From IMG/VR virus record IMGVR_UViG_3300000292_000161: a DNA stretch of 17,698 bases, one strand, 5' to 3'. Positions 1,707-17,698 of the stretch are shown in pieces. The notes beneath the pieces were generated by a model. It had not been told where the DNA came from. It searched no databases and saw nothing but the letters and a program-made list of their open reading frames with translations. A program made the translations under genes and the position numbers. The first letter of the stretch is position 1. Every line of letters starts with the position of its first letter. The stretch comes from a virus (taxonomy: Duplodnaviria > Heunggongvirae > Uroviricota > Caudoviricetes).

Positions 1707-1709
1707 TAC

Positions 1710-2886: not shown

Positions 2887-2949
2887 GCGTACTGGTCGGA
2901 CGTGGTTGCAAAATTTTTGCAACTGATACCCCTCGCGCGCGTACTGGTC
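2887..2949. repeat. two direct GCGTACTGGTC 11-mers flanking a perfect 19-bp palindrome
   Basis: 11-mers at 2887-2897 and 2939-2949; palindrome GTTGCAAAA-T-TTTTGCAAC at 2905-2923. Related (CG)4-containing copies at 2647-2664 and 3013-3027. Confidence 0.6.
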
Positions 2950-3142
2950 ACGAAATTGGTGTTTTGCTGTGGCAGTGATATCAGAAAAATCTTCCTGTTT
3001 CACATAAAGCGGATATGCGCGTACTGTAACGGCCCCATCAACGGGGAGCGGATTTGAAATCCCGACCCAAGCTATGTACCAAATGCCATGTCTTGGATAT
3101 ATGATGATTGCCATTCTAAACAAAGCTAAAGGGAGGGTTGGT

Positions 3143-3499
3143 GTGAGGGGGCAGGCAGTTATAATTATTTTGTTGGGTTTAATTGTCGCAAAGTTATACC
3201 CGACTTTATCGATGGTGTTTTTTGCCATTATTGGCGCAGCCATCTTTACTTATATCATTAAACATACCGCCTTGTGGTTCTATAAAATTGATATAGTTCA
3301 GAAGTTTGTACGTCCTGTGTCGATGTTATTACTAGCATTAATACCAATTGGTGTTGCTTATGTAATTGATGTTTTTTACCCTTCGGACACTGAAAGGTGG
3401 TTGATAGTTTTGTATTGTTATATTGGTGTAGCTCTCTTTTGTGGATTTCATTGGTGTTTCGAAAAGATCAATGACTCTATTTCAAAGAATAAAGATTGA
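3143..3499 (+). CDS. small integral membrane protein (3-4 predicted TM helices), AT-rich
   Basis: ORF is open from 3074; most plausible start is GTG at 3143 with SD GGGAGGG at 3131-3137 (ATG alternatives at 3074/3101/3104). Highly hydrophobic; convergent with the 705-aa gene. Confidence 0.6.
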   Translation: MRGQAVIIILLGLIVAKLYPTLSMVFFAIIGAAIFTYIIKHTALWFYKIDIVQKFVRPVSMLLLALIPIGVAYVIDVFYPSDTERWLIVLYCYIGVALFCGFHWCFEKINDSISKNKD

Positions 3500-3518: not shown

Positions 3519-5636
3519 CTAGTCATTATCTGGATCATTAGATAGCCAAGTAATGATGCCCAGTCTGGCGATGGTCCGTTTTTCCTGTTCAGGAAGAGAG
3601 TTAAAAAAACTCTTCCATTGAGGGGAGCGCCTGATACGTGAATCAACAATGTGCCCAGGCGCTTTTCCGTGTAGATTTTTTACTGCGCTCTGGAAGGCTG
3701 GCGAGGCAATTAATTTATCCGCAGCATCAGCCGCCCCTGCTCCACCAGCTAATCGAGCTTTACTCGCCAATCTTGCTCCAATATCAGCCCCAGCAATGGC
3801 TCCAAGCGATCCAAAATGAGCGCCTACCATCGTGCCTATTTTTTGAATGTGTTTTGCTGCTAGTTCGTATGGAGCTGTTACCCGATTAAATCTGTTTACA
3901 AACTCATTCAGCTTACCAGTAGATATTTCATGCGCTTTAGCATTTTTTATTGCTCTGGCAACTTTGTATACATCATATAGTCCGCTCATTGTTTCTTTTG
4001 GCAAATGTTCAGCCAAAGTCTTTAGCTGTCCACTGTGTTGCAAGTTTTGCCACCAATCTGCAAAGCCAGATGGATTAAAGTCGGCCCCACGCTTCCCAGA
4101 GGAAAGCATATCTCTTAATGCTGTTCCTACTAGCTCCCTTCGCAATGTTCTTGATGGAGTATTTTGCATAATCTCACGAAACCCTCTCGCATCACCTTTT
4201 GCCATAGATTGAAGAGAATTCGTTACTTTATACGCTATATCCCCATTAAGTGTTTTCCCGCGAAGATTTACCATTTGCCTTTCTAAGTTTTTTCTCATAG
4301 CTACAAGGCGTTGTGCGACTTCGAAATCTCGCAAGTATCCAGTATTGGATAAGACAGATTTTTGGTCTTCAGCTAAAGCTCCATATAGTCTTGATAGCGC
4401 TTCTTTATCAGCATCTTTGTATGGCCCCTGCTTTTTATTTAGGGCATCACCAACTAAACGCCTTTGCCTGTTTAAATTTGCATACGTTAGGATGCTATCT
4501 GGGCCGGGGTTTATTGCTGTAAAAACTCGCTTTTCTATTGGGTCAAGATTATCCCACCCTCCTAAATCATCAGCGATTTTTTCCAGCATAGTGCTTGTGT
4601 TATTTGCTTCGACTTTTGTTCTTGGTGATAGAGCGGAATCAACACGTTTATATAACTGATCACTACGGTTTTTTAGTGCTTCCATTCTACTATTTATCTG
4701 ATAAATATATTTTTCGCTCATAGCTAACGCATCTGGCGCACCAGCAACATCATCGATTATCTTGTCAGCACTAGAGGCTAATTCGCTTATTGCTTTATCT
4801 TCTTGAGCTTTTAACGCTGATCCTGTCCGTGACTTTAGGGCTTGCTCTACAGCTTGGTATTGCTCATTTCCTGATAAATGAGAAGGAAGAACTGAATCAA
4901 CATGAAGCCTATTTGCAGCCTCAACAATTTCTTTCTGAGGTTTTAGATCTAGCCCTTCAAGCGAAGAGGCAAGATTTGGGTTGCCTTGTGCAGATAACTT
5001 ACGAATTTTCTCTTCGGCAGGAGTAATCCCCTCAATATCTGGAATCGAAGAAACATTCTTCTTGGTTAATTTCCCAGCTATTTTATTAATTGCAGGGCCA
5101 GCAAGTTCGGCTACAGGGCCAGCCACAGCGCCAATAGCAGCGCCGGAAGCAACATCGCTATTTGTTCCATTGGCTACAATAGCCCCTTCTCCAGCACCAA
5201 GCCCTACGGCGGCAGCCAGTCTTGCCGCCCCTTTGGGAACCTGAGAAATAATCCCACCACCACTAACAAATGGCGCTGCTTGTCCAACGAACTCACCAAC
5301 ATCTTGTGCGGTTGATGGTTTTGCCGCTAACTTCTGCTGTAGAGACTGAATTGCGGCTTGCTCTTCTGGTGTCATATCCTGAAACAGGCCAACACCTTTA
5401 CCAACATCCATCAATCCACTGAGAACGCCATACATAAAACGGTCGAAACCGTTAGCATTATTAACAACATTTTCCTGTCTGGAATTTTCCTCTGGTGAAA
5501 CCAAAGGTGATTGCTGCTGTTCTGGTTGGGCATCAAGCACAAAACCATCAGGAAGCTGTGAACTATCAGGAAACTGTGAGTTATCAGGTTGTTCATCGAG
5601 CACAAAACCTTCCGGTAAGATTACATTTGCTGCCAT
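3519..5636 (-). CDS. hypothetical 705-aa protein, repeat-rich N-terminus, Gly/Ala-rich low-complexity tracts, C-terminal glycine-zipper-like segment
   Basis: ATG at 5636 with AGGAA 7 nt upstream; overlaps the upstream gene by 16 nt. N-terminal repeats LPEGFVLDEQP / LPDGFVLDAQP; C-terminal GAHFGSLGAIAGADIGARLA; no Walker or nuclease motifs seen. Confidence 0.8.
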   Translation of the reverse strand: MAANVILPEGFVLDEQPDNSQFPDSSQLPDGFVLDAQPEQQQSPLVSPEENSRQENVVNNANGFDRFMYGVLSGLMDVGKGVGLFQDMTPEEQAAIQSLQQKLAAKPSTAQDVGEFVGQAAPFVSGGGIISQVPKGAARLAAAVGLGAGEGAIVANGTNSDVASGAAIGAVAGPVAELAGPAINKIAGKLTKKNVSSIPDIEGITPAEEKIRKLSAQGNPNLASSLEGLDLKPQKEIVEAANRLHVDSVLPSHLSGNEQYQAVEQALKSRTGSALKAQEDKAISELASSADKIIDDVAGAPDALAMSEKYIYQINSRMEALKNRSDQLYKRVDSALSPRTKVEANNTSTMLEKIADDLGGWDNLDPIEKRVFTAINPGPDSILTYANLNRQRRLVGDALNKKQGPYKDADKEALSRLYGALAEDQKSVLSNTGYLRDFEVAQRLVAMRKNLERQMVNLRGKTLNGDIAYKVTNSLQSMAKGDARGFREIMQNTPSRTLRRELVGTALRDMLSSGKRGADFNPSGFADWWQNLQHSGQLKTLAEHLPKETMSGLYDVYKVARAIKNAKAHEISTGKLNEFVNRFNRVTAPYELAAKHIQKIGTMVGAHFGSLGAIAGADIGARLASKARLAGGAGAADAADKLIASPAFQSAVKNLHGKAPGHIVDSRIRRSPQWKSFFNSLPEQEKRTIARLGIITWLSNDPDND

Positions 5637-6964
5637 TTTCCGTTCCTGTAAATGATTTTCTGACCAGTTTTAGGGTTGGTTGCCGTTGCGCCTTCTGATA
5701 TTCCTCCGGTTGCCGCTTTTGCCTGTCCAGTGCCAGCCTGTGATGTAGGCTGCCCGGAAACATCGTCAAATAGCTTCGCTTTCCTTCTTTCAAGGCTTTT
5801 TCTTAGCCCCTGAGGAATAGTTTCTCCATATGTATCGAGATACTCGTCAACCTGCTGGTTAAACTGCTGCCCCATAGCATTGGCGTTGATTTTTGCGGCG
5901 TTAACAATGTTATCCTTTGCCTCCTGCGACAGGCCGTTTCCAGCATTAAGCTGGTCTATGTATCCTTTGATTTGTCCCCATATGCCATCAGACCGCATTA
6001 CCTGAACCTGTTCGCCTTCACGAACGACTGACTGCGGGTCAAGAGATTTCATGTAGTTGAAGATAATCCCAAGTTGGGCAGCGCCAGTATTTACCTTGCT
6101 AAGGGCTTGCAGAGAGTTTGCCGCCGCTCTGACAGAGTTATAATTTTTGCCAAAATTGGTAATGTCAGAATTTAATCCCTTAATTAAGTCTGCTGACGGC
6201 TTACCTTTTTGCCCCAGCTCCATTAGCTTCAATCCCATCTCATCTGAGTGAATTTGTGCTCGCTGAGCCCTGTCTAGTTGAGCGTTCTGGATATTTGCCC
6301 ATCCTCTCGCGTTCTCCATGTCAGCCTGACGCATACTTTCATCCAGTCGCCCTTGCTCAAGTCGACGACCTTCCATTTGATCTTTGATATCGAAATACTT
6401 CTCATGACCGAGAGAAAACAGCGCCAGATTACCTGCGAAATGCTGGAAGCCCTGCGGGTCATTAACCTGCATTTCAGCAATAGTTTCTGGAGGGATACCT
6501 AAACGACGCATCTCCTGCTCATTATCCATCATGAACCTGCCAAATGCGCCCTGACCAAGCGATGAGGCTACCTGTGCTTTGAGCGCCAGATTGCCATAAT
6601 CATCCCTTTGAGCATCATCGACATAACTCATCCCTTTACGGACTTCCTCAAACTCTTCTGGGAATGCTGTAATAAGATTACGCATCTGCTCCCTGTCACC
6701 GGACGCATAAGCATCTGCATAACCTTTCTGGAATGCCGCTTTACGTTCCTGCTGTTGCTGCTGCTTATAAATGTCAGCAACTCCAGCCAGACCACGAAGA
6801 CCTGTCAGAGCAACGTTATTTGCACCTGAGCGAGCCAGTTCATTGTTTTCGCGGATCAGACCAAGCGTTGCGTTAATGTCGCTTGCCTTTGGCGCATTCT
6901 CATTTTGCGCACCGATGCCAGCCAGAAAACCACCAGAATTAATACCCTGTTGCCACGTAGCCAT
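5621..6964 (-). CDS. hypothetical 447-451-aa Gln-rich, probably coiled-coil protein
   Basis: ATG at 6964, 4 nt after the TAA of the 57-aa gene (in-frame GTG at 6976 is the alternative start). Contains poly-Q KQQQQQERK and many Q/E/R heptad-like stretches; no catalytic motif recognised. Confidence 0.8.
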   Translation of the reverse strand: MATWQQGINSGGFLAGIGAQNENAPKASDINATLGLIRENNELARSGANNVALTGLRGLAGVADIYKQQQQQERKAAFQKGYADAYASGDREQMRNLITAFPEEFEEVRKGMSYVDDAQRDDYGNLALKAQVASSLGQGAFGRFMMDNEQEMRRLGIPPETIAEMQVNDPQGFQHFAGNLALFSLGHEKYFDIKDQMEGRRLEQGRLDESMRQADMENARGWANIQNAQLDRAQRAQIHSDEMGLKLMELGQKGKPSADLIKGLNSDITNFGKNYNSVRAAANSLQALSKVNTGAAQLGIIFNYMKSLDPQSVVREGEQVQVMRSDGIWGQIKGYIDQLNAGNGLSQEAKDNIVNAAKINANAMGQQFNQQVDEYLDTYGETIPQGLRKSLERRKAKLFDDVSGQPTSQAGTGQAKAATGGISEGATATNPKTGQKIIYRNGKWQQM

Positions 6965-6968
6965 AAAT

Positions 6969-7142
6969 TTACCCACGTCCAGTTAAAGTGTAAGCCAGCG
7001 CCTTATCCATTAATCCCCGAGCAATTTCGTGGATCGTTGGCGCAACTCCTACCTCTGATTTTTTACGCTGCTCCTCCTGAATTTTCTTTATCGCTTCCAT
7101 TTGCTTCTCACTTATCAATACTGGCTTTACTGAAATAGCCAT
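6969..7142 (-). CDS. 57-aa putative DNA-binding regulator (possibly ribbon-helix-helix), first gene of the cargo operon
   Basis: The 100-aa ORF trimmed to the ATG at 7142, preceded by AAGGGGGG. Sequence MAISVKPVLISEKQMEAIKKIQEE..TIHEIARGLMDKAL; function inferred from size and position only. Confidence 0.5.
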   Translation of the reverse strand: MAISVKPVLISEKQMEAIKKIQEEQRKKSEVGVAPTIHEIARGLMDKALAYTLTGRG

Positions 7143-7236
7143 AACGCCCCCCTTAGAACTGTATAAAACAACAGTCATTATAGTTTCATAAAACGCAACA
7201 TTCATCATTGTGATTGCAAAATATGAAACAAATAGC
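7143..7236 (-). promoter_or_regulatory. candidate promoter of the 57/451/705 operon
   Basis: Perfect -10 TATAAT on the minus strand (plus-strand ATTATA at 7177-7182), about 35 nt upstream of the ATG at 7142. The -35 is poor; sits just downstream of an intrinsic terminator. Confidence 0.35.
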
Positions 7237-7271
7237 ACAAAAAAATGCCACCGTTCAGTAGCTGGTGGCAT
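7237..7271 (-). terminator. rho-independent terminator for leftward transcription
   Basis: Minus-strand RNA would form AUGCCACC-(11-nt loop)-GGUGGCAU followed by a U7 tract (plus-strand A7 at 7238-7244). Confidence 0.6.
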
Positions 7272-7636
7272 CGTTCTGTATGTCAGGTTTTGACAGTTTT
7301 TTTATGGACTCTAAAAACTATATTTATGGAGTCGCATTACTCTTCACGGCAGGCGCTTTCCAGTTCTGCCCTTGCTTCTGGCTCCATTGGTAATTTGATT
7401 CGCGATCAGCTATGCGGATGGTTTGCTGAACAGGCATAACAACATCTCAGAGGCTATTTTTTGAACTACGAAAATTTCGTAGTGCTCACCTTCAAAAACG
7501 TCACGCCCTTGTACACTGGATTTTACAAAAGTCTCGTAAAACTCTTTGCTGTTCTGGGCTATGTGCCAAACCGCAGCGAATACCTCCGTCTGCCAGATGA
7601 GCAAAACATACCTTATAAAGAAAATCGCTGTTTTTG

Positions 7637-7740
7637 CTGTACCACCTGTACCACCATGTCACAAACCCTTGTGTGGCGCGGCCTGCAGGTGGTACAGGTG
7701 GGTAAAAATGACCTCTCCCCACCTGTACAGACCTGTACCA
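7637..7740. repeat. iteron cluster 2 (GGTGGTACAGGT family, both orientations), crr-like
   Basis: CTGTACCACCTGTACCACC at 7637-7655, GGTGGTACAGGTGGGT at 7688-7703, CACCTGTACAGACCTGTACCA at 7719-7740. Confidence 0.75.
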
Positions 7741-7745
7741 TTTAT

Positions 7746-8483
7746 TTAATTTTTACCCATAGCAGCACATAATCCCTTTTTTGAAATATTGAAAAATGCG
7801 TTCATTCTTCCCGCTGGCTTAACCTTGTAGCCGCTTGCCACCATCGCCGCAATAAATGCTCCGTTGGGGATATAGTGCGGGTGATCACTGTGCTGGTGGT
7901 TTATCTGGTTATATCGCTCCACTTCATGCTTCAACGTGTCAGATGTGGGGTTATCCTGCGGGAAGCTCTCAATCTGGGCATTACTCATCCCGTTGTCTCT
8001 GATCCATCTCAGGCAGCTTTTCGCCGATACGATAAATGACGGGTTATCAAGCGGGTTTTCCCAGTCCGCATTCCGGTTGTGGAGCGCCAGTCCGTCAAGG
8101 TTAAATTGTGGGTATTCAGCGGTAATTACTGTCACTGCGTGGCGGATTTCAGTCTCGTCACAACATGGCTCATCTCCCACACCAGCAGGGTAATAATCTG
8201 AACCACCGGGACTGATACAGCGTTTACCACTGAAAGGCCATTGCTTCGCCATTTCGGGTGTTGAGTGATTACCGTCGCTCCGTTCGCGCTGTGCCTCTGT
8301 CCACTGGCTGGCATATTCAGTAAATGAAACTCTTTGCCCCTGGCGCATCCAGTGCGCAATCATAATTAAAGTGCGTTCCAGACTTTGGATGTCGCCAGCA
8401 TTCCCGCACTGTGTAGCGAAACTTTTTAATTCTTCGCGCTCCGTTCTGGTCATTCCCTGCAGTATGCAATAGTTATTGTTCAT
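7746..8483 (-). CDS. hypothetical 245-aa protein
   Basis: ATG at 8483 with SD AGAGAGGT; overlaps the 3-prime end of the upstream 76-aa gene by 11 nt. No motif recognised. Confidence 0.75.
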   Translation of the reverse strand: MNNNYCILQGMTRTEREELKSFATQCGNAGDIQSLERTLIMIAHWMRQGQRVSFTEYASQWTEAQRERSDGNHSTPEMAKQWPFSGKRCISPGGSDYYPAGVGDEPCCDETEIRHAVTVITAEYPQFNLDGLALHNRNADWENPLDNPSFIVSAKSCLRWIRDNGMSNAQIESFPQDNPTSDTLKHEVERYNQINHQHSDHPHYIPNGAFIAAMVASGYKVKPAGRMNAFFNISKKGLCAAMGKN

Positions 8484-8703
8484 GTTTTACCTCTCTGATT
8501 TCTGCTGCCATATCTGTTGGCTCTATACAGCCGTCCCGACTTGCCACGCAGGGAATAATGATTTCAACGGTATCGCCGTCAATACACATTTCAACATTCG
8601 CCCATGCCGCAATGGGTAGCCAGTCTGAACGCCCCTCAAACCGTAGCTGCCAGCCAGAGGAAGAAGCTAACTGGCGCACTTTGTAAAATGGTGTGCTCAT
8701 CAT
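8473..8703 (-). CDS. hypothetical 76-aa protein
   Basis: ATG at 8703 (or 8700) with SD GAGAGGG about 8 nt upstream. Confidence 0.6.
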   Translation of the reverse strand: MMSTPFYKVRQLASSSGWQLRFEGRSDWLPIAAWANVEMCIDGDTVEIIIPCVASRDGCIEPTDMAAEIREVKHEQ

Positions 8704-8747
8704 TGGTTGTTCCCTCTCAGCCAGCCAGAAGAAATGCGTTTGTTAAT

Positions 8748-8850
8748 GGTATAGGTGGTACAGGTCTGGTATAGGTAAGATATTGACCTGTACCACTATA
8801 ACGCATTGTTTTTAATGCTGAATTAGCAAAGTGGTATAGGTGGTACAGGT
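8748..8850. repeat. iteron cluster 1, candidate replication origin immediately 3-prime of the primase gene
   Basis: Perfect 18-mer GGTATAGGTGGTACAGGT at 8748-8765 and 8833-8850, partial copy at 8768-8776, inverted copy ACCTGTACCACTATA at 8786-8800. Confidence 0.75.
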
Positions 8851-8879
8851 AAAAACGATCTTCTTGTAAAAAGACTATA

Positions 8880-11307
8880 TTAAAAAACATCATAACCCCC
8901 CATACCGATCAGACGGGCAAACGCAGCCTGTAGAACTCCGACCTCTGGTAGTTCGTAGAACACGCCATTCCCTCGGTCTGGTCTTCCATGCTTCACCAGC
9001 CCCATTTGTGCAAGTGATTTACCCAGTAGTGATCTGGCAGCTGGTTCTTTAAGCTTTTCCCCACGCTCAAGCGACCACGCTACAAACCGACTAACCATAT
9101 CCTTTGCAAACAAACGGACTTCGCCATTAAACGGAGGTTCATTGATTAGCTCGCCATAAAGAAACAATTCAACGCCAGACAGCCCCAGCAAGATTTCTTC
9201 ACGTAAGGCATCGGTCTGTGGCGCTCGTTGAGGGTCAAAACCTGAGAGATCCACCCCTTTAAGATGCCAAAGCAACTTTGCGGCACCGCCATCATTAAGC
9301 CAACTGTACAGCCGATCAAAATACTCCCGGCTCTGTGCTTTTTCAGGAGATGGCTCAAGCACGAGATAGCGGCGCTCTCTTATCCCTGCCTGTAATACCT
9401 GTGTGCTGTTACTGGCAAATATCAACCGGGCAAAATTCGGCATTGGTTCAGCATCAATTCCCTTGCGCTCAAGGTTAAACGTCGGTTCGCTAATAATCGC
9501 TTTAAGTCTGTCAGCTTCAGACGGCTTGTGGATCGTCACTTCGTCAGCAAATACCAGTAGCTTGTTAGCAAGTATTGAATTGAAGCGCCCTGAAATATGT
9601 CCCGCCCCGTTAATGTGGGCGGCGTACTGCCCCAGTATTTGCAGCAGCGGTTTAACCGTTGTGCCTTTCCCTGTGCCCGGGACAGATTTCATCACGATTG
9701 CCACGGACGGTTTTTCATCAGGCTTTTGGATAATGTGCGCCATCCACTGGATAAGATATTGGTATGCCTCTTCATTACCGGCACAGACAACCTGCAACAG
9801 GTGATTAAGGTATACCGTGCAATCTCCTTCAATTGGTTCCAGTGCCAGCCCCTCATACAGATTAAAAACATCGTCAGGGCATTTGTCTGGTACTGGATAA
9901 AATCCTACGCCTCCTGGCTTGTAGTTCTTCCCACTCCATGACAGCCACGCCGATCCCGCCAGCTTTCTGGCGACTCTCGGTTTATGATGAAAATAATGCT
10001 GAAATTGTGATAAATCCTCGAAAACGTGCGATACACCGCCGGTTTGAGAAGGCTTTAGCGACACCACCTTGTGTTTCCCGCCGATGGTGACATGCGTAAA
10101 CGTCCGGTTGATTTCTTCGAGGACAGCAATTTCATCATCGCTTAACACCTCGCCAGAACTGATCTCATTCAGCGCCCCGACTGACTGTTTGTGATTTTTC
10201 ACCTGCGCCCCTTTCCCCCGTGGCTGGTACATCGAATCTTTAAATGCTGCTGTGGCTGCCGCCAGCCCGTGTTGTTGGTGATAGTCGTTCCAGTCGGCTT
10301 TATAGTCAGTCGGTGGCAGAGACACCCAGCCAGCTACGGAAATAGCGGCCCTCTCTGCGGCATCTTTCCCCGTGTTGATCCCTCCACTTTCGGAGTTTCC
10401 TTGCTGGTGATCGTTATCTGCGGCAATGATGATTTGTGCCTGTGGATATGTTCTGCGCATGACTTCCGCTACTGGCAACAGGTTGCCAGCGTCGATTGCT
10501 GCCACTGTCATTGCGTCAGGGCGAATTAAATGGCACGACAGGGCGGTAGCCACCCCCTCAGCAATTATGNNNNNNNNNNNNNNNNNNNNNNNNNNNNNNN
10601 NNNNNNNNNNNNNNNNNNNNNNNNNNNNNNNNNNNNNNNNNNNNNNNNNNNNNNNNNNNNNNCTGTGCGTTTATGGCGTGATATGCCCCTCGCTTTGCTG
10701 AACCTGTCAGGAGTCTTTTTTCACCATGTGAGGTAATAGTCTGTGCTGCTGTAACTGCGCCGGATTTATCCACCAGCGCCAGCAACAGAGATCCATCGGG
10801 CAACACAGGGAATGTAAAATCACCTACCCCTTTCGCAACCAGATAATCAGATTTGCCGTTTACAGCCTTTCTGCGCATGTCATCAAACTGACGGGAAAAC
10901 GTATCCCGTCTTTGTTGTTCGTCCTTCTCTGCCCTTTTCAGGCGCTCCTGTTCGCGTCGCTGGCGCTCGGTTTCCAGTTGTTCCCGTTTCTGGCTGGTGG
11001 CTTCTGGTGTTTCCGTTGTCCGGTAATCAATACCCAGAACATCAGCGGCAAGCAGCGCCGCCTCTGTTGTGTCGCAGTTATTTACGCGTTTAATTAAATC
11101 CAGCCCATCACCAGCGCCGCACTGATTACAGATGAAGCTACCGCGCCCGTTGTCATCGAACCGGAATCGGTCTTTGCCCCCACATGCAGGGCAGGGAGCA
11201 TGACGGCGCGGAGAGTCAGGGACATTTATGTTCAGGCAGCCCAGCACATGAGGCCAGTTGTTTTCAGACGCACTGATAACCTGACGGATAAGATCAATGT
11301 TTCGCAT
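8880..11307 (-). CDS. P4-type DNA primase/helicase (Zn-ribbon + TOPRIM + D5-like P-loop NTPase), interrupted by an assembly gap
   Basis: N-terminal piece (10558..11307) has CPACGG...CNQCG zinc ribbon; C-terminal piece (8880..10553) has IIIAADND (TOPRIM-like) and P-loop VPGTGKGTT. ATG at 11307 with SD ACGGGGG. Frame across the gap is uninformative. Confidence 0.85.
10570..10662. other. assembly gap (93 N) inside the primase gene
   Basis: Run of n characters read directly from the sequence. Confidence 0.99.
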
Positions 11308-11319
11308 TCTGGCCCCCGT

Positions 11320-11922
11320 TTAGTGCGTCACTGGTGCTTCTGGGATGCCGTTTTCGTTTAGTTCGGCAATAAAGCTGTTGTGAAGATCGGCAAGCACTTC
11401 TCGCCCAAACGAAGTGAGTGTTCCCTGTTCGACATCGAACATGTTGCTGTAAAAAATGATGGCATTCTTTGTTCCGACATCAACACCATATTTCTCGATC
11501 ATTGCGCCCTCAATGTTGTTTGCCATAGCGAGGCGCTCTGCTACTGGATACAGCGGCATGGCGACGATGCCATTGGAATAAACAGAAACCACGGAATGAT
11601 TGCCACTGTCATCAATAATGCTGACGGTGCCGTTTTCCTTTCTCATTTCATTGATTAATGCTGTTGCTATCAGCCAGCGCCACATAATCACGTGATGCTG
11701 TGATGTGTAATCGAAATATCCCTGGTTGCCGCCACTGGCAATAGCGAGATGTATAAACATGCCTTCATCTGGTTTATCGTCATAATCCCCGGCATCCAGA
11801 CGATTTACGGCATCAATATATGAGACGGTCTCAACGCGTTCTGTCATGCCATTGTTGCTGCGGTGCATGATGTTTACGCCGTCAGGCGTTGCTTCTGCAT
11901 GGAAGGTTAAGAAATTATTCAT
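11320..11922 (-). CDS. hypothetical 200-aa protein
   Basis: 235-aa ORF trimmed to the ATG at 11922 (MNNFLTF), with SD GGCGAGG and an ATGAATAA stop/start overlap with the upstream 73-aa gene; 12 nt upstream of the primase start. Confidence 0.7.
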   Translation of the reverse strand: MNNFLTFHAEATPDGVNIMHRSNNGMTERVETVSYIDAVNRLDAGDYDDKPDEGMFIHLAIASGGNQGYFDYTSQHHVIMWRWLIATALINEMRKENGTVSIIDDSGNHSVVSVYSNGIVAMPLYPVAERLAMANNIEGAMIEKYGVDVGTKNAIIFYSNMFDVEQGTLTSFGREVLADLHNSFIAELNENGIPEAPVTH

Positions 11923-12136
11923 GTTTCGCCTCGCCTGAATGATTCTGTAACTCATATTTGCCCAACAATTCGTCCGCTTCCTGAATAGCTTCTGGTACGC
12001 CATTGAGCAGTGACATAACCGCGCCAATCATTAACTTGTCTCTGTTGCTTGGGCTGGCCCCTTCAAGCCAGAACCCTAAAACAGTCTGAACCTGTTCGAT
12101 GCGACATTGCGCTTCAATGAGCTGGATGTTGGTCAT
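11915..12136 (-). CDS. hypothetical 73-aa protein
   Basis: ATG at 12136 with SD GGAGAG 8 nt upstream; ATGA overlap with the preceding gene. Confidence 0.6.
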   Translation of the reverse strand: MTNIQLIEAQCRIEQVQTVLGFWLEGASPSNRDKLMIGAVMSLLNGVPEAIQEADELLGKYELQNHSGEAKHE

Positions 12137-12396
12137 TTCGCACTCTCCACATCGATTAAACTGATATCTATCAGGGAGGTAACTTTTTGTAGCCAGCTAT
12201 TGATTACTGTCGCCTGTTCCCCTCCCACCGATGGAAGAATCTCATTCATCACATGAACCAGACCTGTGCGCGCTCTGGTAAGCCGTTCAGTCGTGCGATC
12301 TGCAAGAGTGAATGTGTCTGGATATGGCTCTTCACGGCTCAGCAATGATTCAATTTCCAGCTCACACGGATGACGATAAATTAAGTTGATATTCAT
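12133..12396 (-). CDS. hypothetical 87-aa protein
   Basis: ATG at 12396 with SD GGGGGTGA; ATGA overlap with the preceding gene. Confidence 0.6.
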   Translation of the reverse strand: MNINLIYRHPCELEIESLLSREEPYPDTFTLADRTTERLTRARTGLVHVMNEILPSVGGEQATVINSWLQKVTSLIDISLIDVESAK

Positions 12397-12587
12397 TTTT
12401 CACCCCCAAGAATTACCAGCTCTGCACGGGCATCGTTAACCAAAGATGAGCACGCTTTAATCGCATCCACGACATCAGTAGCGTCCATTTCTTCAGCCGA
12501 AAGACTGACAGCAACCAGGACAGCCGCTGCTTGCTCGATTAATTGAAGTGCGGACGTAAGGCGAGGGGTATTAATTGAGTTATTCAT
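12393..12587 (-). CDS. hypothetical 64-aa protein
   Basis: ATG at 12587 with SD ACGGGGG; overlaps the end of the preceding gene. Confidence 0.6.
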   Translation of the reverse strand: MNNSINTPRLTSALQLIEQAAAVLVAVSLSAEEMDATDVVDAIKACSSLVNDARAELVILGGEK

Positions 12588-12798
12588 TGGTTGCCCCCGT
12601 TTTTACTGGCATTTCGCCACCTTCCAGCAGGAAATGAACGTCACGAACGGCGAGATCCAATATCGCGAGTAACGCCTTCAGTCTTTCGTCTCGTGAGGGA
12701 GAGTTGCTCACCAGAATGTCGTTAATCACTTCTGTCAGTGTGATGATCTGGCTTGTGCGTTCGAGGGGATCCATATGCACATCGTAGTTTTTAATCAT
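12580..12798 (-). CDS. hypothetical 72-aa protein
   Basis: ATG at 12798 with SD GGAGGTG 5 nt upstream; this is the 3-prime part of the 355-aa open frame. Confidence 0.5.
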   Translation of the reverse strand: MIKNYDVHMDPLERTSQIITLTEVINDILVSNSPSRDERLKALLAILDLAVRDVHFLLEGGEMPVKTGATNE

Positions 12799-12985
12799 GT
12801 GCCACCTCCATGCGGATACGACCAGCAAAAAAGCAGATGTGATCGCGCACCAGAGAACGGCGAGCATCGCGTTCAGACTCGGCAGCAATATGATGAATTT
12901 TGGCGGTAATTGTCGGGCAATCGCGGCGAACTGCGGCGATAATCCAGATAAATTGCGTTTTTTGGGTAGGGGTAGTAGCCAGCAT
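12791..12985 (-). CDS. hypothetical 64-aa protein
   Basis: ATG at 12985 with strong SD AAGGAGG 7 nt upstream and good enterobacterial third-position codon usage; different frame from the 355-aa ORF it lies inside. Confidence 0.6.
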   Translation of the reverse strand: MLATTPTQKTQFIWIIAAVRRDCPTITAKIHHIAAESERDARRSLVRDHICFFAGRIRMEVAHD

Positions 12986-13647
12986 GTGGCAGCCTCCTTC
13001 AGATAGCAGGTTACGCTACCACCGGAAACGCCAATTTCGCTGGTGGTAGCCCAGACAGGGTTGGCGTAACCGGCTCTGAAGGATACCGGCGCTTCCGAAG
13101 AAGCCCCCGCCTGAGCCACCATTGATTGACAAAGGCGCTGGATTATACACCAACGCCCAAAAAATGGGTGAGTCAGACCTACGACATAAAAAAAGACGCT
13201 CGGCGCGTCATATGTCGCCTTCAGAATTTTCAGGACGCCAATCCCGGCACCCGTTTTATGAGGTGCCTTATAACCATAAACCGTGTTGCCGCATAACGGC
13301 AAGCTCTTTTTTATGGACTCCGAAAACTCACTATTGGAAGAACCAGAAGCACAGTACATCGCGCTCATTTCGTTAACGTCACGCGCGTGGACGAAGGTTT
13401 TTGTGGAGTCACTACACGAGCAGAGAAAGCCATCTACGACCAGAAATTCTCTGGCATAGCCGCTGACCTTCTCAACGCTAACACCATCGACCGTAATTTC
13501 TGACATAGTTAAGGCATCCGCTCCTACCACCAGCAAATGATAAACTTTGCTTGTATCTGCTGTATTAATGTCTGACTTTGCTGTCATATTGCTGGATTTT
13601 GGCGACATACCAGCCAGTGAAAATGTCTTCTTCTGGACGGGTATCAT
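12986..13647 (-). CDS. hypothetical protein, start well supported, 3-prime end undetermined
   Basis: ATG at 13647 with SD GGAGGT and ATGA overlap with the upstream gene. Coding-like to about 13010, but the frame has no stop until 12580, so a frameshift or sequence error is possible. Confidence 0.4.
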
Positions 13648-13823
13648 TGGTTAACCTCCGCGAACTCCTTCATGAAACGCGCCAGCGGTTGTACGCATGG
13701 CGATTGATACCCGTCGCGATAAAACGTCACTCGGTTGTGAGACACGCTTTCGACAGTAACGAGTGCTCCGTGGGCATCTTTGTAGCGTTTTTGTGGTTGT
13801 GGTATTCCTGTTGGCTTAGACAT
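13644..13823 (-). CDS. hypothetical 59-aa protein
   Basis: The 88-aa ORF begins with TTG; more likely start is the internal ATG (MSKPTGIPQ) with GGAGG 6 nt upstream, overlapping the stop of the antirepressor-like gene. Confidence 0.5.
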   Translation of the reverse strand: MSKPTGIPQPQKRYKDAHGALVTVESVSHNRVTFYRDGYQSPCVQPLARFMKEFAEVNQ

Positions 13824-14649
13824 TGAGCGCCTCCAGACGCTTGGCGAGCCAGCGTTGCGACAGGTGGGTGAGTTCTCCTTTGCGCTGCTCATATTCCATG
13901 CCCATATCAATTAACGTGATATTGGTGCTTTCGAGATATGAGAGGTGCTCAAGCTGTTCTGCGTTCATATGGTCGCGAGGTTCGCCAGAATAGCCATTTA
14001 TCCGCGCCCACTGCTTAGCAGTTAGCCCACCAAGAACGATACGAGAAATCATATTGCTCTCGTTTGTGTAGTGGTGTTGCTGCGTCGTTTTCCCCTGCTC
14101 GGCACGGGCCATGTTCAGCGCATCGCACATTGGCTTAAAGTTGTTTGCGGCACTGATACGGGCTTTTAGCTGGCGACGATAGCGGGCGGCGATTTCAGGC
14201 ACGGTACGCTGTAATTCTTCCTCGCACTGGATGAAATAACGACGGATAGCGCGACCCTGATCATTGCGTTCGATCATTGCCAGTTCTTTCGCCATTCCGA
14301 CACTTAACAGATAGTCTTTGCCGGGTCTGCCAGAGTGCTTAATCTTGCTGTAAGCCGCGCCATTCGGGCTTTTCCCCAAATTTGGGGAAATTGTTTTATG
14401 GACTGAGTAATCGTGCCCAATGGTGAAGTCATATTCAGAGATGCGATCAGTGATCCATGTAGAGAAGTCTTTTCCCACGCCCAACGCTTTGTGTAACGCT
14501 TTTGCGCTAACAATATTGGTTTCACGCCCACCTATATGACCAGAAATAACCGGGACAATTGCGGCAAATTCATTACCGTTAATTGTGCCCAGAGAGGCGT
14601 TCAGATGAGGGGCGGCCTCAGAAATTAATCTGCTTTTTTCGATGTTCAT
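13816..14649 (-). CDS. phage antirepressor-like protein (Ant/KilA-type DNA-binding domain), tentative
   Basis: 277-aa ORF, ATG at 14649 with SD GGAGA. N-terminal region IVSAKALHKALGVGKDFSTWITDRI resembles antirepressor/Bro-type domains; assignment is by pattern only. Confidence 0.7.
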   Translation of the reverse strand: MNIEKSRLISEAAPHLNASLGTINGNEFAAIVPVISGHIGGRETNIVSAKALHKALGVGKDFSTWITDRISEYDFTIGHDYSVHKTISPNLGKSPNGAAYSKIKHSGRPGKDYLLSVGMAKELAMIERNDQGRAIRRYFIQCEEELQRTVPEIAARYRRQLKARISAANNFKPMCDALNMARAEQGKTTQQHHYTNESNMISRIVLGGLTAKQWARINGYSGEPRDHMNAEQLEHLSYLESTNITLIDMGMEYEQRKGELTHLSQRWLAKRLEALNV

Positions 14650-14661
14650 TTTTAGTCTCCG

Positions 14662-15093
14662 TTAGGCGGCGTTAAACGCGTCCGGGTAGAGTTTCAGAAT
14701 GTCGGCAATTTCCTGCTGAGAAAGTCCGTTGTGATCATTTATGTTCGCAAGATGGTTAACATGAGTGATCACTTTCAGAACATCACCACGGCAGGAGAAA
14801 CGGTAGCGAAGGTGTGTTCCGATACCATCAGGATTCTTTTCGTCGATACGCTCCAGAGTGATTCCAAGCTGGCGTTCTAACTCTGTTGCATAGTTACGAC
14901 CAGAAGACAGACGGCAGTAGCGAAGAATGTCATTTTCTGTCCATCCCTCTATACCAGTACGCAGCATATAGACTCGGGCACGATGCTTTTTCGGTGTGCG
15001 CTTTGGTGCTTGAAGGGATTTTGTAAGGGGCGTAATATCAGATACGCGAATATCTGAATTAGCCGCCTGTAATGGGCGGTTTTTCTTTTCCAT
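14662..15093 (-). CDS. hypothetical 143-aa protein, possible winged-helix regulator
   Basis: ATG at 15093 overlaps the alpA stop by 1 nt (TGATG). No motif confidently recognised. Confidence 0.7.
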   Translation of the reverse strand: MEKKNRPLQAANSDIRVSDITPLTKSLQAPKRTPKKHRARVYMLRTGIEGWTENDILRYCRLSSGRNYATELERQLGITLERIDEKNPDGIGTHLRYRFSCRGDVLKVITHVNHLANINDHNGLSQQEIADILKLYPDAFNAA

Positions 15094-15311
15094 CAGGCCA
15101 CCTTCCCGCGGCGTTCTGCCAGCCAGTTATTAATTTCCACCGCATCAAACGCAGTCACGTTATCTGTTAGCTTCACTGGGCGTGGAAGAGTGCCATTTTT
15201 AACCCATCTATCAATAGTAGGCAGTGAAACACCTAGCAATTCCGGCATGCGAAAGCGACGGATGTATCCAGTTGTTGGGATAGCTGATGATGCTGGCTTG
15301 TGTGCTGTCAT
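15093..15311 (-). CDS. alpA: AlpA-family transcriptional regulator/excisionase
   Basis: 72-aa protein whose RMPELLGVSLPTIDRWVKNGTLPRPVKL matches the AlpA/Vis HTH pattern; first gene after a 470-bp AT-rich regulatory region. Confidence 0.85.
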   Translation of the reverse strand: MTAHKPASSAIPTTGYIRRFRMPELLGVSLPTIDRWVKNGTLPRPVKLTDNVTAFDAVEINNWLAERRGKVA

Positions 15312-15376
15312 ATCTCTAGTAACCTCTCTGATAGCTCATGAAGTTACTTAAAGTTTAGTGGTTGCCCATACAGTAT

Positions 15377-15462
15377 TTCTATTAAGACTAGAATCTATTG
15401 AAAGAAATTATAAATCTATTGAAAAAATACCGATCCACTGAAAGATTGCAAATACAGGTGGG
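15377..15462. promoter_or_regulatory. phased repeat array in the alpA-operon control region
   Basis: ATCTATTGAAA at 15393 and 15414 (21-bp spacing), related TTCTATTAAG at 15377-15386 and CACTGAAAG near 15436; TACAGGTGGG (iteron-core-like) at 15453-15462. Confidence 0.4.
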
Positions 15463-15782
15463 ATAATTATTTTCTTTATTTTCAATTAGTTACCAGTTTA
15501 AAAAATCATTGTTTTATCAAAGAGTTATATCTTTCATCGTCATTCATCATGTTTTTACATTTCTTTTTATCTTTTATTATTCAATTGGTTGAGTCGGTTT
15601 ATAATGGCTCATGATGGCTTAAAATGGCTAATGATAGCTGGCGTATCTTTTAGAGATGGGGTGATTACAGATGAACTAAGCCGAACAGATATAGCAATGG
15701 CTAGGCATAGAATTATCTATGCTGGTGGAGATGGGTAAACAGGTAATGCCCCGCCATTGCTTTGGAGGGGCGTGAAAAGTGA

Positions 15783-16433
15783 TTAGTCGAGATCGTGGAC
15801 AGCTAATAAAGCCCGTGAGATTTTTTCTAGGAATGTGGCTTTTGCTATTCCTTTATGGGATATCCCTTCATCCTTGATTAAGGTTTCTATGTCACGGTAT
15901 ATAGCTGTGCGATTAGGTTTCCCATTTTGGATGTAGGAAGATGAGCCTGATTTTTTTATCAGCAGATGTACTATCAACCCCATCATTTTCATTGTCCCGT
16001 TTTCCTCATCCTGCTTTCTATGCTGCCCACGTCCGCTGCGGTTGGTTTCTTTGATGTAGTTTACTAACTGGAGTCCTCCAAGGTTTCGGGCTTTTTCTTC
16101 CCAGCCCTTGGTGCCACGCAAATCATCAATCGCTTCTGATATTTTCTGAACAATTATTTCTGGTGTATTTGTGTCAATAAATGGGTAAGAAGCTAAGAAA
16201 ATATCAAGGGCATGGCAAGGCTCGTCTTTACTAGTTTTTTCACCTCTGTACACCTTGATAGCTCTGGCAAGATGAGTTCTGACAAAATCGACATATTCGA
16301 AATTTTCCTCAGGCACATCGCTAATGCGCATAGATGGGTTTAGGCCAGCCAAGGCCACAGCCATTTCATGAGGGGTAATCGATACAGATGAACAAAGCCG
16401 TTCGATTGGCGATTTTCTCAAGATGTTGTTCAC
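15783..16433 (-). CDS. hypothetical 216-aa protein, AT-rich cargo gene coupled to the integrase
   Basis: ATG at 16433 is adjacent to the integrase stop (16430-16432). Visibly lower GC than the integrase; no motif recognised. Confidence 0.75.
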   Translation of the reverse strand: MNNILRKSPIERLCSSVSITPHEMAVALAGLNPSMRISDVPEENFEYVDFVRTHLARAIKVYRGEKTSKDEPCHALDIFLASYPFIDTNTPEIIVQKISEAIDDLRGTKGWEEKARNLGGLQLVNYIKETNRSGRGQHRKQDEENGTMKMMGLIVHLLIKKSGSSSYIQNGKPNRTAIYRDIETLIKDEGISHKGIAKATFLEKISRALLAVHDLD

Positions 16434-17698
16434 ATTTGCCTCCGGGCTTTATCGAATGGCGTTACGTTGTAGTCTTTCCCGCTTTCCAGTGCCACCAGCA
16501 GATCAGCCCACTGTGCCAGCGCAGCTTTACGCTCATCAAAATACTGATGGCGGTTATAAATCCCCTCCACACCCTTAATGCGATGATTGAGGCATCGTTC
16601 CGCTACGACAGGATCAACACCCAATGCTGCTAAATGAGTACGTGCGGTACGCCGGAAGTCGTGAATCGTGAAATTAGGCACATCCGGCATTTCGGCGCGA
16701 ACCTTAGCCAGTGCTACGGGTAAAGTGCTTTCCTGAATATGTGGGATCATTCTGTTTTGCATCTTCCTGGCTGGAAGCACCCATGCGCTATTACATGAAA
16801 AGGTGTGTAGCTCTCTCAACCATTCAACGGCTGGGGAAGGTAGAGGTATATCAATAGGGTCTCCGTTTTTGCTGCGTTCTTCCGGCAAATGCCATACCGC
16901 ACCATCTAAATCAAACTCTTCCCATCGTGCGGCGCATAACTCCATCTTACGAACGCATAGTGCCAGCAATAGCTTAAATGTCAGTTCGTTCTGGCGGCTG
17001 AATCCTTTTGCGGTGCGCATAGCCTCGAATAGCCTGATAAGCTCATCGCGAGTTAGCCAACGGTCGCGGGAAACCTCTTTACCACCAGCATCAGATACTT
17101 CAAACGCTGAACAAGGGTTTATCTCCAGAGCGTGGCGTTTTATCCCATAGTCAAAGATACGGCGTGCCCAGCGTAATACATCTGTTGCTATCGTTGGTGC
17201 TCCTCGGTCAACGATACCTTTCAACATGTCGTCAATGTGGCGTGGCTTAACGTCCTCTACCTTCATATGCCCAATGCAGGGGTTAATATCCTTATCAATT
17301 CTCCGGCGAAGGATATCGGGATGTTTCCATCTCGGAAGTATCTGGCGCTCGAAGTATTCGGAGGCCAGATCTGAAACACGCATGGCGTTTTTCTCAGCCT
17401 CCATTTTTGCCAGTGCTTCAGCTTTTCGTTCCTGTTTCTCTGCTGCTACGTCATAGCCAAGAGCAACTCTGGCTGACAGCTCTTTTGCTGTTTCTCTGGC
17501 TTTTGATAGTGACAGTTCGGAGTAAGAGCCTATAACCATAGCCCGCTGCTTTCCTGCGAGCTTATAGCGGAATCGCCAGAACGGGACTGTGTAGTTTTTG
17601 GGGTAGCAAATATAAAGGCCGTTGCCGTCTGCCTTGCCATCAAATCTGTCTCCCGCCTTTATCCATGCGCGGATCTGCATATCTGTGAGTTTTGGCAT
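16430..17698 (-). CDS. int: P4-family tyrosine integrase (site-specific recombinase)
   Basis: 422 aa, ATG at the window edge (17698). N-terminal arm-binding pattern (GKADGNGLYICYP...FRYKLAGKQRAMVIGSY) and C-terminal catalytic motifs (IHDFRRTARTHL, GIYNRHQY). Confidence 0.95.
   Translation of the reverse strand: MPKLTDMQIRAWIKAGDRFDGKADGNGLYICYPKNYTVPFWRFRYKLAGKQRAMVIGSYSELSLSKARETAKELSARVALGYDVAAEKQERKAEALAKMEAEKNAMRVSDLASEYFERQILPRWKHPDILRRRIDKDINPCIGHMKVEDVKPRHIDDMLKGIVDRGAPTIATDVLRWARRIFDYGIKRHALEINPCSAFEVSDAGGKEVSRDRWLTRDELIRLFEAMRTAKGFSRQNELTFKLLLALCVRKMELCAARWEEFDLDGAVWHLPEERSKNGDPIDIPLPSPAVEWLRELHTFSCNSAWVLPARKMQNRMIPHIQESTLPVALAKVRAEMPDVPNFTIHDFRRTARTHLAALGVDPVVAERCLNHRIKGVEGIYNRHQYFDERKAALAQWADLLVALESGKDYNVTPFDKARRQM

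Follow-up and report, generated by a model that had tools for sequence, protein, structure and literature searches.

The 17,698-nucleotide (nt) stretch of DNA analysed here (the window; IMG/VR record IMGVR_UViG_3300000292_000161, filed under the Caudoviricetes) represents nearly all of a phage-inducible chromosomal island (PICI) of ~17.9 kb that is inserted at the 3' end of yicC in Escherichia coli and is of the EcCIMP1 type, a reading to which we give a probability of about 0.8. EcCIMP1 is the 19,963-bp PICI of E. coli MP1 (Pick, Stadel & Raivio, ISME J 2025, PMC11773190). It is well supported that the published EcCIMP1 family gains one more member, which brings a new attachment site and new combinations of modules.

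Boundaries and Insertion Site of the Island

A chromosomal segment of many E. coli isolates, nearly all of them human-derived, matches the window at 100% identity, and a match spanning at least 80% of the window was found in 60 of 5426 complete E. coli genomes. In strain SF-166, the window-identical segment sits between dinD and yicC, two genes that are neighbours in K-12, which does not carry the island. The inserted block was defined by comparison with K-12 and other genomes. With both junctions aligned to the K-12 yicC-dinD junction, it runs from about 11867 to 29808 of locus L001 (~17.9 kb), of which 12001-29622 is covered by the window, leaving ~134 bp of the island outside on the left and ~186 bp on the right. 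The chromosomal genes follow closely, dinD within ~380 bp and yicC within ~190 bp of the window ends; on the integrase side, yicC starts 189 bp past the end.

The initial annotation of this DNA had confined the element to positions 7237-17698, which was not borne out: the island fills the window and continues past its left end. It had also allowed for a packaging module lying outside the window. This is excluded, because in the genomes that are 100% identical to the window no further island genes are found between its ends and dinD or yicC. The general backbone of a Gram-negative PICI is present, with int, alpA and pri/rep, an adjacent putative origin, a size of ~17.9 kb and no lysis or major structural genes, and nearly all of the credible genes are on the minus strand.

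No tRNA gene was detected in the window, and a tRNA was rejected as the integration target, as the island is located at yicC. Extension of the sequence, which had been proposed as a way to find att repeats and a flanking tRNA, returned no tRNA but did yield imperfect direct repeats ATTATGTACACCnnTATGTACACG near both ends (L001 11913-11936 and 29680-29703, 87 bp to the left and 58 bp to the right of the window). Additional TGTACA copies lie beside the integrase gene. Island-free genomes of the K-12 type join dinD and yicC directly, without the ATTATGTACACCnnTATGTACACG repeat, and a synthetic empty site containing ATTATGTACACCnnTATGTACACG had no match in any of the 5426 E. coli genomes. Since no genome shows an unoccupied site with the repeat, ATTATGTACACCnnTATGTACACG is disfavoured as the att crossover core, and the two copies are more likely to be arm sites of the integrase. 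The terminator-like hairpin found downstream of yicC is brought by the island itself.

The Window and EcCIMP1 Belong to One Island Family

EcCIMP1 circularises only in the presence of Kapi1, a P22-like phage, requires int and alpA, and is transduced by Kapi1 at low frequency (PMC11773190). Its excised circle, confirmed by sequencing, contains the ejection genes; the authors found no capsid-morphogenesis or terminase gene and described 'DNA transfer' genes downstream of the primase (PMC11773190). According to the scoring of de Sousa quoted by Pick et al., EcCIMP1 would be a 'Type C' PICI, a class not callable with confidence (PMC11773190).

The window and EcCIMP1 agree in gene order across nine consecutive genes and the N-terminal part of the primase, with 83-100% amino acid (aa) identity. 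The set includes the 143-aa protein, AntA, the DUF4222 protein, the Ash region, the small open reading frames (ORFs) and the phrog_1515 protein. At the nt level, identity reaches 94% over 11322-15103 and 93% over 6994-7545. In both islands the primase is followed by the same small ORF and then by P22-type ejection genes, and both carry a conserved non-coding block with a triplicated repeat and a PerC-like gene at the far end. Other modules differ. The integrases are 28% identical, and the site is the 3' end of yicC in the window but tRNA-Thr in EcCIMP1; the window has another alpA allele and lacks the second alpA_1/xis-like gene; the C-terminal half of its primase is of the DUF5906 type, whereas that of EcCIMP1 is of the DUF927 type; and it has extra 76-aa and 245-aa ORFs between its iteron clusters. 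Its ejection cassette consists of gp20 and gp16, without gp14 or gp7, and its gp20 is 25% identical to that of EcCIMP1; between the two gp16 proteins no match was detectable. The initial annotation had considered a reduced island with a different mobilisation strategy; this came close to the truth, for the EcCIMP1 family lacks capsid-morphogenesis and terminase genes, and EcCIMP1 itself is nevertheless induced and transduced by Kapi1.

The regulatory block was found over at least 80% of its length in 481 of the 5426 complete genomes. Ejection genes occupy the same post-primase slot in all seven annotated E. coli members examined (the window, EcCIMP1, L006, L007, L008, L021 and L022), which are inserted at yicC or at tRNA-Thr. 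Each module opens with the same 53/57-aa ORF, followed either by gp20 and gp16 only or by DUF2824/gp14, gp7, gp20 and gp16, and the ejection alleles differ among the members. The unannotated Escherichia sp. locus L004 also gave matches to the small ORF and to gp20. This recurrence at two sites, together with an EcCIMP1 circle that contains the ejection genes, makes a chance juxtaposition with a prophage remnant unlikely.

The Ejection-Protein Module

The module and its immediate neighbours comprise the following features.

7247-7262, minus strand: intrinsic-terminator-like hairpin (consensus scan), just upstream of the ejection-gene module
6969-7142, minus strand: 57-aa protein, 92% aa identity to EcCIMP1; found ahead of the ejection genes in all E. 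coli relatives examined
5621-6964, minus strand: P22 gp20-type ejection protein, 447 aa, intact (PF16928 2.5e-73; phrog_917 4.2e-132)
3519-5636, minus strand: P22 gp16-type ejection protein, 705 aa, intact (phrog_6704 7.4e-175; phrog_770 'DNA transfer protein' 9e-51)
3104-3499, plus strand: 131-aa multi-pass membrane protein with hydrophobic segments and weak Bax1-I and CBO0543 matches, directly after the gp16-like gene

The window is not free of virion-related genes: the gp20-type and gp16-type genes lie just to the left of position 7237. All genes flanking them are of the satellite family, and the window holds no coat, portal, scaffold, terminase, tailspike, lysis or lambdoid regulatory genes, as a P22-like prophage would, but gp20 and gp16 only. 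DNA similarity of the window to phages was restricted to P22-like phages, with Kapi1 as the best match. The gp20 homologue is 75% identical to that of Kapi1 and is mosaic, residues 1-68 and 195-447 being near-identical and residues 69-194 unrelated. The gp16 homologue is 41% identical overall, near-identical over residues 1-180 and far more divergent in the remainder; in tblastn it showed 40-63% identity to the gene-16-position proteins of Sf101, APC_JM3.2, E212 and Kapi1. As judged from these alignments, the near-identical segments suggest compatibility with a helper of the Kapi1 type. The ratio of nonsynonymous to synonymous substitutions (dN/dS) against Kapi1 in the conserved segments was 0.08-0.09 for gp20 and 0.20 for the N-terminal part of gp16; the sequences of the window and L006 were too similar for an informative value. 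Because of these dN/dS values, together with intact ORFs of phage length, we regard the ejection genes as kept functional. The gp20 and gp16 of the window are much closer to those of Kapi1 than are EcCIMP1's own; the full set of EcCIMP1 shows identities to Kapi1 of 83% (gp14), 57% (gp7), 26% (gp20) and 24% (gp16).

In P22, gp7, gp20 and gp16 are required for DNA delivery and not for packaging, since mutant virions form but fail in delivery (Leavitt et al., mBio 2024, PMC10883804). Whole heterologous sets of ejection proteins function in P22 virions, and the virion genes that vary most include 16 and 20 (PMC10883804). Mutations that escape exclusion by the inner-membrane protein SieA fall in the C-terminal regions of gp16 and gp20, not in gp7 (PMC10883804). 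The island carries exactly these two proteins. It also resembles P22-like prophages in having a small membrane protein gene after the gp16 homologue, where sieA follows gene 16. It differs from P22 in that the ejection genes reside in a satellite without other virion genes, and in that the downstream membrane protein has no SieA similarity and no FxRYPxEAxxFNK motif. The 131-aa protein had no tblastn match in phages either, and as a SieA homologue it was rejected, the analogy being one of position alone. By that analogy, it may have a function in exclusion.

The small envelope protein encoded after the gp16 homologue differs from island to island. Those of the window and L008 (3199-3597) are related multi-pass membrane proteins, that of L007 (5013-5453) is possibly secreted, and EcCIMP1 (L005, 4632-5330) encodes a 232-aa protein with a lipoprotein-like N-terminus (LLAGC). 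Such a protein might explain the superinfection immunity reported for EcCIMP1. For the 57-aa protein at the start of the module, the AlphaFold model consists of two helices (pLDDT 77.6), and neither Foldseek nor the profile searches gave a match; that it could be a ribbon-helix-helix regulator is only a guess from its sequence.

No Intact Packaging or Capsid-Hijacking Gene Was Recognised

About 25 ORFs of the window were scanned against Pfam, PHROGs, NCBIfam and PADLOC. None of them matched profiles for sid, psu, delta, capsid, portal, TerL, intact TerS, Rpp, Ppi or Cpm, and the Pfam and PHROGs searches gave no match to epsilon or to coat, portal, tail and lysis genes. The initial annotation had seen no sid/psu/delta-like or packaging genes and had named sensitive profile searches as the test that could overturn this; the observation stands, no intact gene of this kind having appeared. 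The window thus has no recognisable PICI module for packaging or redirection (TerS, Rpp, Ppi, CpmAB) beyond a decayed N-terminal fragment of TerS, and none of the capsid, portal, head-tail connector or terminase genes that a capsid-forming PICI (cf-PICI) has of its own.

PICIs of the EcCICFT073/EcCIEDL933 type are said, following Fillol-Salom in 2019, to redirect cos-type lambdoid helpers by means of Rpp or capsid-morphogenesis genes. The window differs from these classical Gram-negative PICIs in that neither Rpp nor a capsid-morphogenesis gene is detectable and the probable helper is a headful-packaging podovirus. It resembles them in the int-alpA-pri/rep backbone, a size of 10-20 kb, the lack of lysis genes, and the placement of accessory genes, which lie downstream of pri and at the ends (PMC11773190, PMC11364771).

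The likeness to P4 that had been pointed out at the outset holds for the integrase family, the AlpA-type regulator, the primase-helicase with its putative iteron origin and, as described below, an antisense RNA of the C4/CI class. It fails for sid, psu and delta; in addition, there is no match to P2-type helpers, and the virion-related genes are podoviral.

Relatives in Other Enterobacteriaceae

Homologues of the phrog_1515 protein, a marker of this island family, numbered 484 and came from Escherichia, Salmonella, Klebsiella, Enterobacter, Citrobacter and Kluyvera. Those from outside Escherichia are ~60% identical and lie in syntenic islands, often also beside yicC. A scan of genome contigs with this protein alone returned one locus, a single-protein query reaching close relatives only. 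The islands of Klebsiella, Enterobacter and Citrobacter seem smaller, with a post-primase SSB, usually PerC, and small ORFs.

In place of podovirus ejection proteins, the Salmonella islands have a tail tape measure protein that is full length (1001 aa; phrog_1538 1.5e-164; phrog_1107 2.5e-153) and shows 44-60% identity to tape measure proteins of siphoviruses. The gene was found at 15952-18957 of L013 (Salmonella enterica, GCA_020739125.1) and also in L014 and L015, islands that are located at yicC. It is placed inside the island because a close homologue of the window ORF 881-1312 lies distal to it (L013; similarity judged by eye). The preceding 56-aa and 106-aa ORFs might be tail assembly chaperones.

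Podovirus ejection proteins and siphovirus tape measure proteins both leave the virion and help DNA to cross the cell envelope. The presence of two cargoes of this one DNA-conduit class in a single satellite family suggests that the islands customise DNA entry. A broader version, which we hold only tentatively and with some doubt, is that in a widespread Enterobacteriaceae satellite family with the layout int - AlpA - AntA/Bro - C4/Ash - phrog_1515 - primase - PerC, conduit cargo has been acquired repeatedly and matches the morphotype of the helper, so that these satellites customise DNA entry and not capsid size or packaging specificity. If true, customised entry could permit injection into cells guarded by SieA-type exclusion of the helper, or could alter the host range. 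Our literature search found no paper describing conduit-protein cargo in satellites.

Proposed Life Cycle and Alternative Explanations

The P4-family integrase, whose gene and insertion boundaries are observed, would hold the island in the chromosome. The switch would be governed by AlpA, AntA, the isrK-like and C4-type RNAs and the Icd-like ORF, all of which are present; by extension from EcCIMP1, a P22-like helper entering the lytic cycle would turn on alpA, which would be needed for excision. Replication would then be carried out by the island primase-helicase from the iteron clusters just downstream of its gene. Because the island has no gene for capsid size, terminase or redirection, we propose that the headful terminase of the helper packages concatemers into normal-sized, unmodified helper capsids, each of which would hold ~2.2-2.3 island copies, given a 17.9-kb island and a 39.4-kb helper genome. 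Finally, the island would express gp20 and gp16, while gp7, gp14 and particle assembly would come from a helper of the Kapi1 type.

For the ejection proteins, the candidate roles are DNA delivery or exclusion evasion, interference with phage assembly, and packaging. It is conceivable, although we would put it at somewhat below even odds, that the gp20 and gp16 of the island are built into the particles and form the DNA conduit across periplasm and inner membrane, possibly escaping SieA-type exclusion in lysogens of the helper. Several observations weigh against an island mobilised and delivered in this way. EcCIMP1 is transduced very inefficiently by Kapi1 and its gp20 and gp16 are only 24-26% identical to those of Kapi1; it is therefore unproven that an island gains from matching its helper. 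Downstream of pri, PICIs have a known hotspot for defence cargo (PMC11364771). The relatives in Klebsiella, Enterobacter and Citrobacter carry neither the ejection module nor other virion genes, which makes the module cargo and not part of the core. No genome has a simple empty attB bearing the TGTACAC repeat, and what the junctions have in common is a short imperfect match at best, so recent mobility is not demonstrated. Some host genomes, such as that of SF-166, match the window at one place only at megablast sensitivity, and therefore no closely related helper prophage is resident in them.

A minority possibility that we nevertheless take seriously is that the gp20 and gp16 homologues, like the tape measure protein of the Salmonella islands, are defence cargo, which as near-copies of structural proteins would enter the virions of invading P22-like phages or of the helper and render the progeny non-infectious, or would exclude superinfecting phages together with the adjacent envelope protein, and would protect the host population instead of serving transfer. 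Immune systems that block virion (tail) assembly are indeed carried in the pri-adjacent region of PICIs (He et al. 2024, PMC11364771), and EcCIMP1 raises the superinfection immunity of Kapi1 lysogens (PMC11773190). The variability of the module, its restricted distribution among the relatives, the variable membrane or lipoprotein-like genes right after the gp16 homologue and the Abi-family genes nearby in relatives fit such a role as well. On the other hand, Kapi1 titres were not lowered by EcCIMP1 after induction (PMC11773190), PADLOC matched neither the ejection proteins nor their neighbours except the ImmA/CapP-like peptidase, and the genes are not truncated decoys but of full length, with purifying selection as in functional structural genes. 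A packaging role was tentatively proposed by Pick et al. for EcCIMP1_017 to _019, and the module does share its post-primase position with the packaging genes of classical Gram-negative PICIs (PMC11773190). That the ejection homologues and neighbouring ORFs steer satellite DNA into helper capsids appears unlikely to us, however, as their P22 counterparts serve delivery (PMC10883804) and no terminase-like or DNA-binding domain was found in the homologues.

It is quite improbable that the window is a composite of a cryptic P4-like integrative island and a decayed P22-like prophage with non-functional leftover ejection genes. Genes 20 and 16 are typical late genes of P22-like phages, a decayed terS fragment lies close by, and a perfect att duplication was not found; yet the primase, the small ORF, the ejection genes, the conserved block and perC recur with different alleles at both tRNA-Thr and yicC, the 19,963-bp circle of EcCIMP1 includes the ejection genes, the window lacks any further P22-like gene (coat, portal, tailspike, terminase, lysis), and the ORFs are intact with dN/dS of 0.08-0.20. 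Hardly any weight remains for a P4-like element that is a satellite to P2-type myoviruses and no longer has sid, psu and delta. The integrase, AlpA, the alpha-like primase-helicase with iterons, the C4/CI-type RNA and the 'Ash' region would suit it, but neither these three genes nor epsilon was matched in Pfam or PHROGs by any ORF, its virion genes encode nothing but podovirus ejection proteins, similarity to phage DNA is limited to P22-like phages, and its nearest relative among characterised elements has a podovirus as helper.

Elements with this regulatory block are common, and satellite classifiers which need a packaging or capsid module leave them as uncertain 'Type C' PICIs. Recognising them as satellites that P22-like phages mobilise with no remodelling of the capsid would close a gap in satellite catalogues. 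If it is true that satellite particles use ejection or tape measure proteins of the island, this would be a new type of satellite-helper interaction, at DNA entry and not at assembly or packaging, and it would link to the partly understood mechanism of SieA exclusion.

Integrase, AlpA and the Regulatory Block with Its RNAs

The right part of the window contains the integration and regulatory genes.

16430-17698, minus strand: tyrosine integrase of the P4/CP4-57 type, 422 aa (Arm-DNA-bind_3 8.9e-20, Phage_int_M 7e-17, Phage_integrase 6.7e-17; phrog_1 1.8e-63)
15783-16433, minus strand: 216-aa protein between int and alpA (phrog_30524 3e-34, no function label)
15312-15782, no strand assigned: AT-rich intergenic stretch upstream of alpA (GC content ~0.40 vs ~0.48 in the flanks)
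15093-15311, minus strand: AlpA-family regulator (PF05930 6.1e-06, HTH_17 3e-05)
14662-15093, minus strand: 143-aa family-core protein, 99% aa identity to EcCIMP1
13816-14649, minus strand: AntA-type antirepressor (PF08346 2.1e-21; phrog_5817 4.3e-38), 96% aa identity to EcCIMP1
13644-13823, minus strand: DUF4222 protein (PF13973 1.1e-24), 95% aa identity to EcCIMP1
12580-13647: annotated 355-aa 'ash' ORF (Phage_ASH 6e-34)
13189-13266, minus strand: isrK-like RNA (Rfam RF01394, 67.8 bits; gathering score 50)
13039-13126, minus strand: C4-type antisense RNA of the P1 c4 / P4 CI class (Rfam RF01695, 79.9 bits; gathering score 45; full length 1-87)
12791-12985, minus strand: Icd-like ORF (NCBIfam NF033153 1e-19), nested in the 'ash' ORF in another frame
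11915-12587, minus strand: three small family-core ORFs (64, 87 and 73 aa), 97-100% aa identity to EcCIMP1
11320-11922, minus strand: 200-aa phrog_1515 protein (phrog_1515 3.4e-46), the island-family marker used here

Relatives have another gene at the position of the 216-aa protein. The AT-rich stretch 15312-15782 is presumed to contain a helper-responsive alpA promoter, by analogy with the alpA promoter region of EcCIMP1 (-449 to +50), which is induced by Kapi1 (PMC11773190). The AlpA of the window is another allele than EcCIMP1 alpA, and its sole tblastn match in the EcCIMP1 locus was alpA_1, at 34% identity. The 143-aa core protein (14662-15093), named 'PM1773 family protein' by RefSeq in relatives, is also found in relatives from Salmonella, Citrobacter and Enterobacter.

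Both the C4 RNA and the isrK-like RNA lie within the 'ash' ORF. The C4 loop pairs with CTGAAGGAGG...ATG (13013-12974), the ribosome-binding site of the Icd-like ORF, in what is among the best predicted duplexes of the window. Overlapping the isrK-like RNA, there is a weak match to the C4 a1/b1 target family RF03163 (19.1 bits, below threshold). A second C4 target upstream of the ejection genes was sought and dismissed, as no convincing duplex was obtained there, the notable one being that at the icd-like ribosome-binding site.

The locus 12580-13647 looks like an RNA immunity cassette of the P1 immI / P4 CI type; its C4/icd-like arrangement resembles the immunity design c4-icd-ant known from P1, and also the P4 CI RNA. 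It shares with P1/P7 immI the C4 RNA (79.9 bits), an antirepressor encoded in the same operon, and the Icd-like ORF, whose ribosome-binding site complements the C4 loop. It differs in that AntA is encoded upstream of C4, not downstream, and in that the locus is annotated as one 355-aa 'ash' ORF, which may be in part an annotation artefact. In relatives, RefSeq divides the 'ash' region into a partial 'ash' pseudogene and Icd, and one fragment is called 'DNA-packaging protein'. The EcCIMP1 paper makes no mention of a C4-icd RNA arrangement (PMC11773190).

The three small core ORFs (11915-12587) had no informative profile match. In some genomes (e.g. L021 11812-12075) RefSeq names the 87-aa ORF 'nicotinic acetylcholine receptor subunit beta', a name that is clearly spurious and is spreading through annotation.

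Primase-Helicase and Iterons

Between the regulatory block and the ejection module, the replication genes and repeats are arranged as follows.

8880-11307, minus strand: primase-helicase (Zn_Ribbon_Prim 8.8e-16, Toprim_3 1e-13, DUF5906 9.9e-20)
7635-7742 and 8754-8850: two iteron clusters, downstream of the primase gene and not inside it (direct and inverted repeats D11, I2, I12 and I13)
8473-8703: 76-aa ORF, between the iteron clusters
7746-8483: 245-aa ORF, between the iteron clusters

The P4-family integrase, AlpA, primase and iterons reported by the initial annotation are real: the proteins have Pfam matches at their listed positions, and the iteron motif GGTGGTACAGGT, allowing at most two mismatches, occurs in 10 copies against 0.77 expected, a number reached in 0 of 200 shuffles. 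By analogy with P4 and PICIs, the clusters are a putative replication origin.

The primase is a single coding sequence of 783 aa in RefSeq genomes that are 100% identical to the window (e.g. SF-166). In the window, 93 N at 10570-10662 replace just 17 nt (ATGCTGTGAGGTCGTTT) of the otherwise identical genomes, and the gene appears as two ORFs in different frames because this run of N does not preserve the length. The N-terminal 214 aa are 100% identical to EcCIMP1 and the 5' end of the gene shows 98.9% nt identity, while the C-terminal helicase part is of the other type. The 76-aa and 245-aa ORFs (7746-8703), which lie between the inverted iteron clusters and had no profile homology, are restricted to the islands whose primase is of the DUF5906 type, namely the window and L006.

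The Left End of the Island

Beyond the ejection module, the window contains a conserved block and accessory genes.

2520-3068, minus strand: unannotated conserved block with a TerS N-terminal coding relic (2536-2637) and repeat copies at 2649-2677 and 2934-2962
1329-2192, minus strand: ImmA/IrrE (CapP-like) metallopeptidase, paired with a 125-aa protein that has transmembrane segments at its C-terminus (Peptidase_M78 9.6e-20; PADLOC capP 4.9e-25; phrog_5346 1e-22)
881-1312, plus strand: 143-aa conserved island protein (RefSeq coding sequence)
322-609, minus strand: PerC-family regulator (phrog_994 4.1e-37; RefSeq name PerC), 54% aa identity to the PerC-like protein of EcCIMP1
22-50, plus strand: third copy of the ~29-nt repeat CGCGCGCGTAYTNGTCRYGAAAT (repeat family D1), near the left (perC) end of the island

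RefSeq leaves the conserved block unannotated; its segment 2556-3068 shows 96% nt identity to EcCIMP1. In blastn, 2536-2637 matched nothing but small-terminase genes, at their 5' ends (ES18, CobraSix, Bordetella phages and cyanophages; E 9e-12 to 4e-3). A conceptual TerS peptide, joined by hand across the frameshift, gave weak matches to Terminase_2 (0.042) and phrog_51 (0.009) and 39% identity to the N-terminus of ES18 TerS. In EcCIMP1 the relic carries a frameshift and in L006 it is missing, which indicates that it is decaying.

The repeat CGCGCGCGTAYTNGTCRYGAAAT occurs in three direct copies, two in the conserved block and one near the perC end, and is kept in the window, EcCIMP1 and L006, including the copy at the equivalent of 22-50. 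It encodes the TerS helix F-x-D/E-K/Q-Y-A-R and is kept even where the reading frame is broken; one copy in EcCIMP1 has a stop codon within the motif reading frame (read by eye). As a tentative candidate from its sequence, the triplicated repeat beside the decayed terS could be a packaging signal. One copy shares a 14-nt exact match with Kapi1 terS; with the repeat consensus the similarity covers ~18 nt. None of the three copies had a DNA match in the phage collection, and mimicry of a pac site in Kapi1 terS is unproven: since the motif encodes a conserved TerS helix, the similarity is explained by common descent from a terS gene. A likeness to the late promoter/terminator region of Kapi1 was likewise discarded, as it came down to short matches at chance level.

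The segment 1329-2192 is a variable accessory or defence spot. The otherwise near-identical island L006 (98.5% across the regulatory module) lacks the peptidase and the 125-aa protein and has other genes at this end, including a Doc-type toxin farther out. As to the PerC-family regulator, the PerC-like protein of EcCIMP1 silenced LEE1 expression in Citrobacter rodentium (PMC11773190).

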